Shown here in pieces: positions 55,468-59,597 of a stretch of DNA of 64,000 nt; positions within the stretch are counted from its first letter, which is position 1, and each line of letters starts with the position of its first letter. A program made the position numbers and the translations under genes. The notes beneath the pieces are model-generated. The model ran no database searches. It was not told the DNA's origin and was given only the letters and a program-made list of their open reading frames with translations. Source of the DNA: Dictyostelium discoideum (Eukaryota); NCBI GenBank assembly GCA_000004695.1, contig CM000152.2, forward strand, positions 1,088,001 to 1,152,000, read 5' to 3'.

Positions 55468-58400
55468 TTAATTAATATATTCTGATGTTGTATCAGATAA
55501 ATAAAAGGAAGGTGTATTTGGAAGTGATTGAGCACATGGAGACTCATTTGAACTTGGAGCACTGTCTAATGGTGAGGTATTTTGAATTGGGCTCAAAGCT
55601 AAATTTAATGATGATAGTTTTTCAAGGGTTGGAGTTGTATTTGAACCTTGAATTTGATTTGGTGTACTATTAGTTGATAGAGAACTATTATTGTTATTAT
55701 TTGGTGAATTATTTGTTGTGGTGGTGGTTGTAGTAGTAGTATTGGTGGTGGTGGTAATTTGATGTTGTGATGTTGTATTTAAAGTATGGGGCGATGAAGT
55801 TGAACCTGGATTTTGTTGTTCTAATTTCACACAAACTCCACAAAGAATAAATACTGTTGGTCTTTGAATTTTTTGTTTTTTAACAGGGAATTGGTGTTGT
55901 TGTTGAAGGAGAAGATGAGAAGTTTCCAAAAGAGCTGGTGATGAAGATGATGAAGAAGCAGAGATTGGAGTTGGACCATTTGGTTTTGATGAAGAAATAG
56001 TTAAGCAACTACCACTACCACGATGAGTAACATCATCAACCAAATGACTATTATTTGGATTTAATAAAAGATGATTTTCAGTTGTTGTTGTTGTTGTTGT
56101 TGTTGTTGTTGTTGAAGGTTGTGGTTGTGGTGGTAGTGGAGGTGGTGGTGGTAATTGATTATGTCTAAATTCAGCATATTCTGTTTTATCTAAAATTTTA
56201 ACATCATTTGGTAAACATGTGATACAAAAAGAGGATGGACAACCTTTACAAATGAAGAAACTACCACCAGATTCGTTTGGTGTCTTTTTACATTGATGAC
56301 AAGCATGTCTTGAACATTTCCAACTTCTTGGTGTATGAGCTAAACCAGCACATGATCTATGATAGATCTTTGGGCATGATCTACATTGAACCATTGATGT
56401 GCGACCTTTAGAATCCTCTTCTTTCTTACAAGAAAAACAATTTCTATCCAACAAAGTCTTATGTTTTTTTGGTGATCTATTCTTTTTCTTTAAATCTTCA
56501 GCTGTTTTCAACATTGATATTGGATCACTACCAGATGGTGATGAAGATAATGGTGAAGGATTTGATGAATCACTACCACCACTAGTTAATGAAAATGATT
56601 TAACACCATTTAAACTACTAGTTTTCCATAAATTATTATTAGAATTATTATTATTATTATTTCCTAATAAATTTGTGCTACCATCGAATGAAGTTGATTT
56701 TGAATTTAAAATTGACATTGATTGAATTAAATTTGCTTTTGTTTGAAATTGACTAAATAGTAATGGACTACTACTTCCACTACTTGTAGTTGGTGAAATT
56801 GCACCACCACCAGCAGCGGTGGTAGTAGTAGTTGAGGAGGAGGAAGAGGAGGAAGTTGAAGTTTGAAGTATATTTTTTTTATAATTGGACATTTTGACAA
56901 TACAAAATTTCATCATTTCAACCATTTCATCCTTTTTAGACTTTTCAAATAAAGTTTTTTCAGCAGATTCTATCATTAGGTTTGATGAATTTGTATTACT
57001 TATACAATTGAAATCAATCTTTTGGTTTCTAATGAATAACCATTCTTCAACTGTACCTGCTGTTAATAATCTAAACTTTCTAATTGTTGATGGTGATGAC
57101 GATGATGATGATGATGATAATGATAATAATGATTCGATCTTTAATTTCAATGTTATTGAATTATTAATATTGATTTCCTTTGATAAATCTAAATTCCAAT
57201 AATATTCAAATTCAATTACATTGAATTGATTAATTGAATTTAAATTGGTTGGAATTGGTGGTGGTGATGATGGTGGTGTCGATGATGTAGTTGGTGATGA
57301 TGATGGTGATGATGATGATGACGATGAAGATGATGATGATGATGATGACCATTCATTTCCACCTCCTAAATTTGTAAGAATCTTTGTATCAAAATTTATA
57401 AATTCAACAAAACTTGATAAAATAATTACTGGTGAACTTGTTATATTTCTACTTGTTGCACTATCAAGTAAATCATTAATTTTAAAATAATTTAATGATC
57501 TAAAAAAAAAAAAATTAATATAAAAAATTAATATAAAAAGGTAATAGAAAATTATAAAATAAAAATAATTGCTTACTTTAATTTTAAAAATTCTTCTAAT
57601 AAAGTAAATAATTGAATTGAAGAAGATAATAAAATAATAACTTGACGTTGTTGTTGTTGCTGTTGATGTTGTTTAATAATATTCTGAATTAAATAATTTG
57701 TAGCTAAAAATTTTGAAGATGAATTTGCTATACTATTATTTTGATTATTTAATAGATTTGGATGATTACAACATTTCTCTAACATGAAATAAAGATCATA
57801 TAAAAATTTAGTTTGATCCAATTGACCAGAATTCATTTTTGGTATATTTTCTTTAAGTAATGATCTATATAAAACCTCTTGTGTATCTGAAATTTGAAGT
57901 AATATATCTTTTCTTAAACTATTATTATTATTATTTGTATTTGTATTATTACTATTGTTATTATTATTATTATTATTATTATTATTATTATTATTATTAT
58001 TATTATTATTATTATTATTATTACTATTATTAAAACTCTCAAATGATGATAAAACTTGAGACTCAATTTGCTTTTCAAATGGAATTTCAAATGATGATAG
58101 TGGTGATGGTATTGTCACTGATGATGTTGTTGATGAAGTATTTTGCATTGAAACATTTATTAACAAATCATTTGATGGTGGTTCGCAAATTGATCTTTTT
58201 CTTGATTGAATTAGTGGCGTGGATGAAGATGATATTGATTGTGTTCCTATATTATTGTTATTATTATTGTTATTATTACCCAAATTATTTATTACCACTG
58301 GCATATTGGTTGGAGTTGAAGATTTATTAGCATATATCAGATTTAATTCCTCTGAGATGTTGCCCATACTACTATTATTATTACTATTACTATTATTATT

Positions 58401-59597
58401 ATTATTATTATTATTATTATTATTATTATTATTATTATTATTATTATTATTATTATTATTATTATTATTATTATTATTATTATTATTATTATTATTATTA
58501 TTATTATTATTATTATTATTATTATTATTATATGAAGTTATTTGATATGGTGATGGTGGGCTATTACTAATATGTGGTATTTGTTGGGATGGAGATGATG
58601 AGTGAGTAATTGGTATAAATTGTTGTTGTTGAATAGGTGATCTTGGTTGTTGGGGTGGAGGAGTTAAACGCGGGTTAATTTGATAATATTGTTGTTGTTG
58701 TTGTTGTTGTTGTTGTTGTTGTTGTTGTTGTTGTTGTTGTTGTTGTTGTTGTTGTTGATATTGAATATTACCATTGCTATTATTACAATTATTGTTATTG
58801 TTTCCGCTATTATTACTATTACTATTACTATTACTATTATTATTATTATTATTATTATTATTATTATTATTATTATTATTATTATTATTATTATTATTAT
58901 TATTATTATTATTATTATTATTATTATTATTATTATTATTATTATTATTATTATTATTATTACTATTACTATTGTAGTACATTACAGTTGGCATATTTGT
59001 ATGATGTTGTGATGGCGACATTGGGTGACTATTTGAATCACCACAACAATTTATATTATTGTTATTATAACTAATATTTGGACTAGCCAAATATTCATTT
59101 ACATTTACATCTTGTATGTGGTGTTGTTGATGGTGGTGTTGTTGTGGCGAAAATGGATGTTGTTGAATGTGGGTATGTGTTGGTGGTGGGGAAAATGGTT
59201 GTTGAGATGGCGAAAATGGTTGTTGTTGGTGAGGAGAATAAGGTTGTTGTGGTGAATATGGTTGTTGTTGTTGTTGTGGTGAATATGGTTGTTGCTGTTG
59301 TTGTTGTGGCGAATATGGTTGTTGTGGTGAATATGGTTGTTGCTGTTGTTGTGGTGAATATGGTTGTTGATATTGTTGTTGATAATGAGATTGTTGATGT
59401 TGTTGTTGTTGTTGTTGTTGTTGCTGCTGCATCATCATTTGTTGGTGGTGAATTTGTTGTTGATGAAGTTGATGATTTTGATGATAATTATTTATATCGT
59501 CAGGCATTGCGTATACCTGAGGAGATAAGCCATTATTATTATTATTATCATATTGACTATTATATATCATATGCTGTTGCTGTTGCTGTTGCTCCAT
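55468..59597 (-). CDS. Degenerate SNF2-family helicase C-lobe protein with a C-terminal PHD-type Cys cluster, 2 exons (57577..59597, 55468..57499). The N-terminal 560 aa is Q/N/P-rich with no DExx ATPase lobe.
   Basis: Exon 1 starts MEQQQQQQH.. and contains (PYSPQQQQQ)n and long poly-N/poly-Q runs. It then reads ..LQISDTQEVLYRSLLKENIPK..FLYDLYFMLEKCCNHPNLL..SSKFLATNYLIQNIIKQ..RQVIILLSSSIQLFTLLEEFLKLK, matching the SNF2 pattern ..Y..IL...LLN.LMQLRKICNHP.L..SGK...L..LL....G.RVLIFSQ....LDILEDYL. After TTA AA|gtaagc..ttttag|A (77-nt intron, phase 2), exon 2 reads SLNYFKINDLLDSATSRN..ILTNLGGGNEW-polyS-..SPSTIRKFRLLTAGTVEEWLFIRNQKIDFN (compare YRLIT.GTIEE.I..R...K). It ends CFSCKKEEDSKGRTSMVQCRSCPKIYHRSCAGL..WKCSRHACHQCKK..FICKGCPSSFCITCLP, a PHD-like C4HC3 plus a second Cys/His cluster. 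Walker A, DEAH and the motif VI arginines are absent. Confidence 0.6.

Follow-up and report, generated by a model that had tools for sequence, protein, structure and literature searches.

The window analysed here is a 64,000-bp stretch of Dictyostelium discoideum DNA (assembly GCA_000004695.1, contig CM000152.2, positions 1,088,001 to 1,152,000 of the forward strand), and all coordinates below refer to it. On its minus strand, from 59597 to 55468, lies a coding sequence of two exons for a protein of 1350 residues. We consider it likely that this is a genuine protein-coding gene and that its product is a dictyostelid descendant of an ISWI-like chromatin remodeller with an NSD-type zinc finger, in which the motor is dead and the protein serves as a reader or adaptor. 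An earlier note on this DNA had proposed that the locus encodes a SNF2 helicase C-lobe without an ATPase N-lobe, either a catalytically dead derivative of a remodeller or an assembly artefact. The former description agrees with our results, as the lobe-2 homology is significant, the catalytic motifs are absent or degenerate, and neither Pfam SNF2-rel_dom (PF00176) nor Helicase_C (PF00271) was reported for the D. discoideum protein at E values up to 10. The latter does not, given that the same architecture recurs in three assemblies and six relatives and that the region shows purifying selection.

The SNF2-homologous region covers residues 563-882 (56875..57911, minus strand, with the intron inside) and contains the last strand of lobe 1 and the helical protrusion specific to SNF2 proteins, followed by a RecA-like lobe 2 in degenerate form and a helix resembling NegC. 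When residues 560-886 were used as a single query against the PDB, chains of SNF2h, Isw1 and Myceliophthora ISWI (MtISWI) were retrieved at E values of 3e-6 to 1e-4. A profile of seven dictyostelid SNF2-like regions (profile A1) matched SNF2h at 5.4e-31 and ISW1 at 4e-30, with weaker matches to Chd1 (about 1e-19), Snf2 (about 1e-15) and Ino80 (about 1e-12), and also to CHD1L, CHD4, Sth1 and CSB. The SNF2 similarity, significant with the single query (3e-6) as with the profile, is not a matter of chance. All three peptides quoted in the earlier note are present, namely LEKCCNHPNLL (residues 606-616), RQVIILLSSSIQLFTLLEEFLKLK (651-674) and FRLLTAGTVEEWLFIRNQK (within 813-834). The span aligned by the profile corresponds to SNF2h 410-655, that is, the strand closing lobe 1 with the helical protrusion, lobe 2 in its entirety and the NegC segment, and to residues 10-257 of chain B of 5JXT, which is nearly the separately crystallised MtISWI fragment. 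SNF2h, Isw1 and MtISWI ranked at the top of both the sequence and the fold searches, making ISWI the best-matching subfamily.

The retained piece is therefore larger than the C-lobe alone: lobe 1 is indeed absent, as had been claimed, yet the last SNF2_N strand, the helical protrusion and the NegC-like helix have been kept in addition. The tail of the Pfam SNF2_N region, KDILLQISDTQEVLYRSLL...LEKCCNHPNLL (residues 563-616; 57750..57911, minus strand), holds this strand, the protrusion helices and the LRKCCNHP box, and it aligns to SNF2h 410-463 and ISW1 359-414. At the other end, IRKFRLLTAGTVEEWLFIRNQK (residues 813-834; 57019..57084, minus strand) forms the last strand and helix of lobe 2 in alignment with the canonical SNF2 segment, and the NegC or brace-like helix KKDEMVEMMKFCIVKMSN (residues 862-879; 56884..56937, minus strand) is 77% identical across Dictyostelia. 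Both the FRLLTAGTVEEW and the KKDEMVEMMKF segments are kept in D. discoideum, and the latter aligns to GKDEMLQMIR of SNF2h. With the ISWI ATPases (SNF2h/SMARCA5, Isw1 and the Myceliophthora enzyme in 5JXT) the dictyostelid protein thus shares the LRKCCNHP box, the SGK helix, the strand order, FRxxTxxTVEE and the NegC-like KDEMxxMxxF. It differs from them in the absence of lobe 1 (motifs I-III), in the degeneration of motifs IV, IVa, V and VI, in the large homopolymer insertions in its loops, and in the lack of a HAND-SANT-SLIDE module, for which no Pfam match was obtained in the whole orthologues or in those parts of the D. discoideum protein that were scanned (residues 883-1006 and the low-complexity tails excepted). 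Across the family, SNF2-rel_dom reached at best 0.0037, in two of the seven members, and Helicase_C matched none of the seven.

The place of lobe 1 is occupied by the N-terminal region (residues 1-559; 57921..59597, minus strand). The earlier note had called this part pure Q/N/P low complexity. It is low in complexity but not pure: asparagine (32%), glutamine (19%), serine (12%) and proline (8%) together make up 71% of it, and the conserved islands EYLASP, SRKRSICEPPSN and FEKQIESQVLSSFESF lie inside. No ATP-binding motif of lobe 1 was found in the seven family proteins (the D. discoideum protein and its six relatives), in which pattern searches for G.GK[TS] or any GK[TS], and for the motif II pattern DE[AGSC]H, returned nothing (0/7 each). 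The Walker A motif, the DEAH box and the motif VI arginines, whose absence from this protein the earlier note had stated, are missing from all seven in the pattern search and the alignments. Pfam gave no match on residues 410-521, where remnants of the N-lobe were sought. Four intact N-lobes used as queries recovered the LRKCCNHP tail only, both by tblastn against the whole 64-kb window and by blastp against the seven family proteins. The absence of an SNF2_N-encoding reading frame within 4 kb upstream was likewise borne out, as the 4.4 kb of 59598-64000 hold the exons of Vap and AT-rich spacer and no SNF2 N-lobe, with tblastn negative. In all orthologues the SNF2 homology begins at the same residue, behind low-complexity N-termini. 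When the profile was extended upstream, FEKQIESQVLSSFESF gave a weak alignment with residues 327-342 of Isw1, the helix ahead of LPxKxE. This match is not significant alone; FEKQIESQVLSSFESF may be the last remnant of lobe 1.

Within lobe 2, the motifs were compared by alignment with intact relatives and SNF2h, and four of them have decayed. The remnant of motif IV with the helix that follows is RQVIILLSSSIQLFTLLEEFLKLK (57499..57647, minus strand, intron inside), where RVLIFSQMTRVLDILEDYC is canonical, and VLIFSQM has become VIILLSSS in D. discoideum. Motif IVa has changed from CRLDGQT..R to FKINDLLDSATSR, with its basic residues gone. The motif V remnant, PVIILSSFVEFINFDT (residues 697-712; 57385..57432, minus strand), stands for the canonical FVFMLSTRAGGLGINL and has lost the RAGG glycines; at its core LSTRAGGLGINL is replaced by LSSFVEFINF. 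Motif Vb has fared better: NVIEFEYYWNLDLSKE (residues 767-782; 57175..57222, minus strand) corresponds to the canonical VVILYDSDWNPQVDLQA, and in the change from ILYDSDWNPQ to IEFEYYWNLD the tryptophan is retained, being conserved in at least 90% of alignment A2. The position of motif VI is taken by ININNSITLKLKIESLLSLSSSSSSSSPST (residues 783-812; 57085..57174, minus strand), which contains neither DRAHRIGQ nor the arginine fingers, the canonical MDRAHRIGQTK being represented by ININNSITLKLKIESL and a serine run. The degeneration of motifs V and VI is common to all orthologues.

The earlier note had placed a poly-Ser run at motif VI. There is such a run, a 9-residue Ser-rich stretch with eight consecutive serines (residues 802-809), but it is preceded by ININNSITLKLKIESLL, and it occurs in D. 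discoideum proper only, neither of the two D. cf. discoideum strains having it. A larger Ser/Pro-rich insertion (residues 725-757; 57250..57348, minus strand) lies between motifs V and Vb. It varies in length among strains, with its polySer part ranging from 9 to 27 residues, and D. cf. discoideum L006 carries a polyglutamine tract of about 48 residues ahead of the motif IV strand. Homopolymer tracts within the SNF2-like lobe are polymorphic among close strains at 57250-57348, at 57100-57130 and at about 57648-57665. Because lobe 1 is lost and motifs IV, IVa, V and VI have decayed, neither ATP hydrolysis nor DNA translocation is expected; on these alignments, the protein cannot be an ATPase.

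The fold of the lobe is nevertheless predicted to be retained. The AlphaFold2 (AF2) model of the D. purpureum region reached a predicted local distance difference test score (pLDDT) of 72.5 and a predicted template modelling score (pTM) of 0.69, from a multiple sequence alignment of 19 sequences that included intact relatives. As a control, the P0009 region was modelled from an alignment restricted to the dead family, which gave a pLDDT of 74.5 and a pTM of 0.75. Both models show an alpha/beta lobe with strands and helices in the expected order, and the best Foldseek match of both is 5JXT, a crystal fragment of MtISWI lobe 2 with the H4 tail (E values of 5.5e-10 and 4.7e-14). Isw1, SNF2h, ALC1, CSB and Chd1 follow; 5JXT, Isw1, SNF2h and ALC1 span E values of 1e-9 to 1e-14. 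None of the best 50 Foldseek matches of either model is an Hda2/3 structure. The Ser/Pro insertion segment has a pLDDT below 50 in the AF2 model, and both this insertion and the polyglutamine site before motif IV fall in loops predicted to be disordered. In these models a RecA-like lobe-2 fold is predicted, in keeping with the remodeller ancestry that the earlier note had put forward.

The C-terminal half carries an NSD-type PHDv-C5HCH tandem zinc finger (residues 1028-1102; 56215..56439, minus strand), where the earlier note had seen a PHD-like Cys cluster. Two Pfam models identify it above their cut-offs, PHD (8e-8, 32.6 bits, cut-off 24) and PHDvar_NSD (3.7e-7, 30.5 bits, cut-off 27). The PHD ligands as read from the sequence are C1028, C1031, C1046, C1049, H1053, C1056, C1068 and H1071, and those of the second finger are C1073, C1076, C1090, C1093, C1098 and C1101. 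In a PDB search with residues 1011-1123, NSD1 (2NAA, 1.1e-6) and NSD3 (4GND, 1.3e-5) were the best matches, and NSD2 was also found. The fingers of NSD1, NSD2 and NSD3 (PDB 2NAA, 4GND, 9GBF) share with the dictyostelid finger the Cys/His spacing, including the W-x-C-x2-H-x-C junction; the dictyostelid protein has no SET, PWWP or AWS domain, and its last CxxC is apparently displaced by an insertion of about 110 residues. This distal CxxC block, KKQKIQRPTVFILCGVC (residues 1214-1230; 55831..55881, minus strand), is 72% identical across Dictyostelia and sits about 110 low-complexity residues past the C5HCH cysteines, whereas intact relatives have a similar hydrophobic-CxxC far nearer to the finger. 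It probably completes the C5HCH finger as a zinc ligand, the finger having seemingly been split by a low-complexity repeat insertion. The block of residues 1024-1114 (56179-56451) is the most conserved in the protein. Next to it lies KKKNRSPKKHK (residues 1011-1021; 56458..56490, minus strand), a conserved basic stretch resembling a nuclear localisation signal, which together with SRKRS suggests nuclear import.

To collect relatives, the exon-2 translation was used as the query of an exhaustive HMMER search. Six strong ones (E values of 1e-137 to 2e-39) were found in five other dictyostelid species: the orthologues of D. purpureum (XP_003292873), Polysphondylium violaceum (KAF2077071) and Heterostelium album (XP_020434869), two proteins of Acytostelium subglobosum (P0011 and P0012) and one EukProt protein. 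Their database labels are 'hypothetical protein' or 'PHD-type domain-containing protein'. The two Acytostelium proteins are diverged paralogues, and P0011 is also without the segment bearing the motif Vb tryptophan. The architecture without an N-lobe is common to all six relatives and to three independent D. discoideum or D. cf. discoideum assemblies, so that a look at dictyostelid orthologues, as the earlier note had advised, reveals the same truncation in five other species. Across Dictyostelia, conservation is highest in three blocks: identity reaches 81% in the zinc finger, 77% in the NegC-like helix and 72% in the distal CxxC block. Against the D. cf. discoideum strains, the ratio of nonsynonymous to synonymous polymorphism (pN/pS) was 0.10-0.14 overall, 0.014-0.13 for the SNF2-like region (where pS is about 0.10-0.13) and 0.04-0.08 for the PHD region; with the PHD region included, pS ranges from about 0.1 to 0.19. 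Judged by these ratios, the gene region is under purifying selection.

Several short motifs outside the folded parts are also found Dictyostelia-wide. These are (D/E)EYL(A/S)(S/N) with acidic residues (59067-59111), SRKRSxCEPPSN (58161-58205), FEKQIESQVLSSFESF (58032-58079) and SPLLFSQFQ...LWK (56680-56769). Near the C-terminus, NTPSFYLSD (residues 1335-1343; 55492..55518, minus strand) is conserved across Dictyostelia.

The likely ancestor is indicated by intact relatives in other protists. Among the best 150 library matches of the exon-2 search, many of which matched through the finger, 64 have an intact motif VI, and 24 of these 64 have Walker A and DEAH motifs too. SNF2-rel_dom, Helicase_C and PHD are all present by Pfam in P0078, P0014 and P0113, with SNF2-rel_dom at 1e-46 to 1e-71 and Helicase_C at 1e-23 to 1e-25 in the intact relatives P0078 and P0014. 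The intact protein P0017 (EP01130_P016041) comes from the amoebozoan Rhizamoeba saxonica, and its finger is 40% identical to that of D. discoideum (E value 2.6e-18); another finger-bearing intact ATPase is the chrysophyte P0128. The best PDB matches of the intact finger-bearing proteins are SNF2h and ISWI. They share with the dictyostelid proteins lobe 2, the NegC-like helix, the linker, the PHDv-C5HCH finger and the distal CxxC in the same order, but have the full SNF2-rel_dom and Helicase_C with canonical motifs, of which the dictyostelid proteins have neither. In the simplest history, the ancestor was likely an ISWI-like SNF2-PHDv-C5HCH remodeller that later lost its motor function in dictyostelids. 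No intact dictyostelid-looking paralogue occurs among the best 150 library matches, which does not prove its absence. D. discoideum possesses a canonical isw gene (PMC3848188).

The intact proteins (among P0013-P0156) appear to form an unnamed and widespread protist subfamily of ISWI-like SNF2 ATPases in which a C-terminal NSD-type PHDv-C5HCH finger replaces HAND-SANT-SLIDE. One library match of 2438 aa has extra PHD-like Cys clusters at its N-terminus, and may, as a guess, resemble Plasmodium ISWI. Literature searches directed at the dictyostelid gene, at SNF2 proteins that are dead or pseudo-enzymes and at protist ISWI with a PHD finger returned no description of the family.

The gene model was built by joining two long minus-strand open reading frames (ORFs), 57573-59597 and 55468-57150, across a 77-nt intron. 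Exon 1 (57577..59597) starts at the ATG at 59597 and encodes residues 1-673 and two bases of codon 674, as determined from the ORF list and manual splicing. The intron (57576-57500, GTAAGC...TTTTAG) splits the codon of K674, and exon 2 (55468..57499) encodes residues 674-1350 with the stop codon at 55468-55470. The extent of 55468-59597 given in the earlier note was thus correct, the intron having gone unstated. The splice junction LKLK|SLNYFKI agrees with the uninterrupted D. purpureum protein (LKQKSLNYLKI), and the N-terminal MEQQQQQQ is kept in the sister strains and D. purpureum. In a second D. discoideum assembly, GCA_054883475.1, which is 99.85% identical across 20 kb, a gene is annotated on identical DNA with a product likewise of 1350 aa. 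Start, intron position and stop are the same in the two D. cf. discoideum assemblies (L005 and L006), and the equivalent introns, of 79 nt in L005 and 82 nt in L006, are in the same place.

Several observations weigh against the interpretation of a dead ISWI-like remodeller turned reader or adaptor. The core sequence of lobe 2 is just moderately conserved. The alignment behind the first AF2 model held intact SNF2 sequences, while that of the control did not. The descent from a SNF2-PHD-C5HCH family rests on shared architecture and the ranking of best matches rather than on phylogeny. Isolated ISWI lobe 2 binds the basic patch of the H4 tail through CtISWI residues E470, E473, D519, E522 and E523 (PMC6755096). 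By alignment, the D. discoideum protein keeps two of these five acidic residues (the EE of LLEEF), Heterostelium three and P0009 two. With only two of the five and no DNA contacts from motifs IVa and V, binding of nucleosomes or the H4 tail by the dead lobe is uncertain.

Two rival explanations deny the gene a function of this kind. That a full SNF2 ATPase is encoded here, with its N-lobe exons missed, located elsewhere or lost by misassembly, is exceedingly improbable. A+T-rich low-complexity DNA is difficult to assemble and annotate, and one gene caller merged the gene with its upstream neighbour in L006; but a second assembly carries identical gene DNA, two D. cf. discoideum assemblies agree in the structure of the gene, and six relatives from five species start their SNF2 homology at the same residue without Walker A and DEAH. 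Moreover, Vap fills the upstream 4.4 kb, where there is no SNF2_N, the tblastn search for N-lobes was negative in the 64 kb, and with motifs V and VI of lobe 2 destroyed as well, an added N-lobe would not restore ATPase activity. A decaying pseudogene, or a neutral relic without function, could account for the vanished catalytic motifs, the massive homopolymer insertions and the strain-variable tract lengths. It is hardly compatible with an open frame of 1350 codons, a conserved intron and pN/pS values of 0.014-0.13 for the SNF2-like region and 0.10-0.14 overall. Nor does it fit the retention of orthologues by five or more further dictyostelid species, among which the finger is 81% and the NegC-like helix 77% identical, and we regard it as very unlikely.

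Two others grant the protein a function but a different one. If the lobe-2 protein paired in trans with a lobe-1 protein or with active ISWI, a working motor could be formed from a split ATPase. The predicted retention of lobe 2 and the NegC helix would suit such a partnership, as would the bona fide ISWI gene in D. discoideum (PMC3848188). However, the arginine fingers of motif VI, the glycines of motif V and the basic residues of motif IVa are lost, and therefore no contribution to hydrolysis or DNA tracking would be expected; no lobe-1-only gene was seen, and we give this scenario very little credence. An analogue or orthologue of Hda2/Hda3, in which the dead lobe 2 would bind DNA or nucleosomes on behalf of a class II histone deacetylase (HDAC) complex, is in our view quite unlikely. 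The N-terminal halves of Hda2/Hda3 are a SNF2-type lobe 2 without ATP motifs that binds DNA within the Hda1 HDAC complex (PMC7793584), and these fungal non-catalytic subunits share with the dictyostelid protein the possession of lobe 2 and the SNF2-specific helical subdomain only. In addition, HDA2-3 (PF11496) is the sole Pfam family matching the SNF2-like region. It matches four of the seven family members (best E value 5.3e-8) and exceeds its 27-bit cut-off in Heterostelium (29.4 bits). In D. discoideum the match stays below the cut-off (24.1-24.8 bits, E values of 1.5e-5 to 2.4e-5), and the model is generic, since intact SNF2 ATPases score equally or better with 34-37 bits (P0017 2.3e-9, P0078 1.6e-8); orthology to Hda2/Hda3 was rejected for this reason. 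The matches of ISWI chains surpass anything Hda-like by about 25 orders of magnitude, and no Hda2/3 chain is among the best 60 sequence matches or the best 50 fold matches. Where Hda2/Hda3 have a C-terminal coiled coil with which they assemble with Hda1, the C-terminal half of the dictyostelid protein consists of low complexity and the PHDv-C5HCH finger. Hda2/Hda3 are the closest functional precedent; their origin is independent, judging from the much closer similarity to ISWI, the generic nature of the HDA2-3 match and the different C-terminal module.

We then propose a model for the dead remodeller. Lobe 1 would have been wholly lost before the sampled dictyostelid lineages split, with low-complexity sequence now in its place. 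In lobe 2, the motifs that serve catalysis and DNA tracking (IV, IVa, V, VI) would have decayed while the fold, the helical protrusion and the NegC-like helix were retained. The product would most likely be a nuclear, non-enzymatic chromatin reader or adaptor. By analogy with the NSD fingers, the ligand of its PHDv-C5HCH finger would probably be the tail of histone H3 or a partner with a zinc finger; the finger of NSD2 is reported to read H3K4me0/H3K27me3 (PMC11724302). The dead lobe 2 and the NegC helix would probably act as a rigid docking platform for a nucleosome or protein, which would fit the scaffolding role that the earlier note had thought possible, and the long disordered tracts with their short conserved motifs may recruit partners.

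It is tempting to speculate further that the dead lobe 2 and NegC helix make the protein a pseudo-enzyme regulator of active remodellers, a 'decoy remodeller' that arose by truncation of the motor, although we hold this to be unlikely. SNF2h works best as a dimer. Such a decoy would occupy the docking site at superhelical location 2 (SHL2) and the H4 tail on nucleosomes marked by the ligand of the PHDv-C5HCH finger, or would pair with an active ISWI motor, and nucleosome sliding would then be blocked or directed at specific chromatin states.

The gene is probably DDB_G0278771, because its upstream neighbour on the same strand is Vap (MSP domain, DDB_G0278773). Vap spans 60714-63407 on the minus strand, has multiple exons and ends in a C-terminal hydrophobic anchor; its annotated length varies between assemblies, 365 versus 408 aa. 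The exact 1350-aa sequence had no identical entry in the protein collection searched, and a literature search on DDB_G0278771 returned no paper naming the gene. Neighbouring ORFs match exactly XP_641951, a CstF-50-like WD40 protein, and XP_641949 (DDB_G0278765, RING). The CstF-50-like gene (53749-55269, plus strand) is convergent with the gene described here, and the stop codons are 198 bp apart across an AT-rich interval (55270-55467); with so little space between convergent stops, the 3' untranslated regions and terminators must be very short or overlapping. In GCA_054859205.1 (D. cf. discoideum L006, 11693-19642, corresponding to 55468 to about 63400 of the window), the gene caller merges Vap and its downstream neighbour into a single product of 1735 aa, while in the other two assemblies the two are separate, with 1350 or 1322 aa and 365 or 408 aa, respectively.

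To our knowledge, pseudo-enzymes derived from remodellers are very rare, and Hda2/Hda3 were the only studied case found in the literature searched. SNF2 derivatives with lobe 2 only and no ATP motifs are thus already known, and the dictyostelid family with its PHDv-C5HCH finger is a new case, uncharacterised in the databases. It suggests that an ISWI-type motor can shrink to an autonomous lobe-2 unit, the same as that isolated by crystallographers, which has long been kept under purifying selection in fusion with a histone-reader-type finger. The family also draws attention to a widespread, apparently unnamed protist subfamily of ISWI-like proteins with a C-terminal PHDv-C5HCH finger. It would offer a natural experiment on the role of a SNF2 lobe 2 without ATP hydrolysis, and in D. 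discoideum the gene would be a tractable knockout target for the study of development and chromatin biology.

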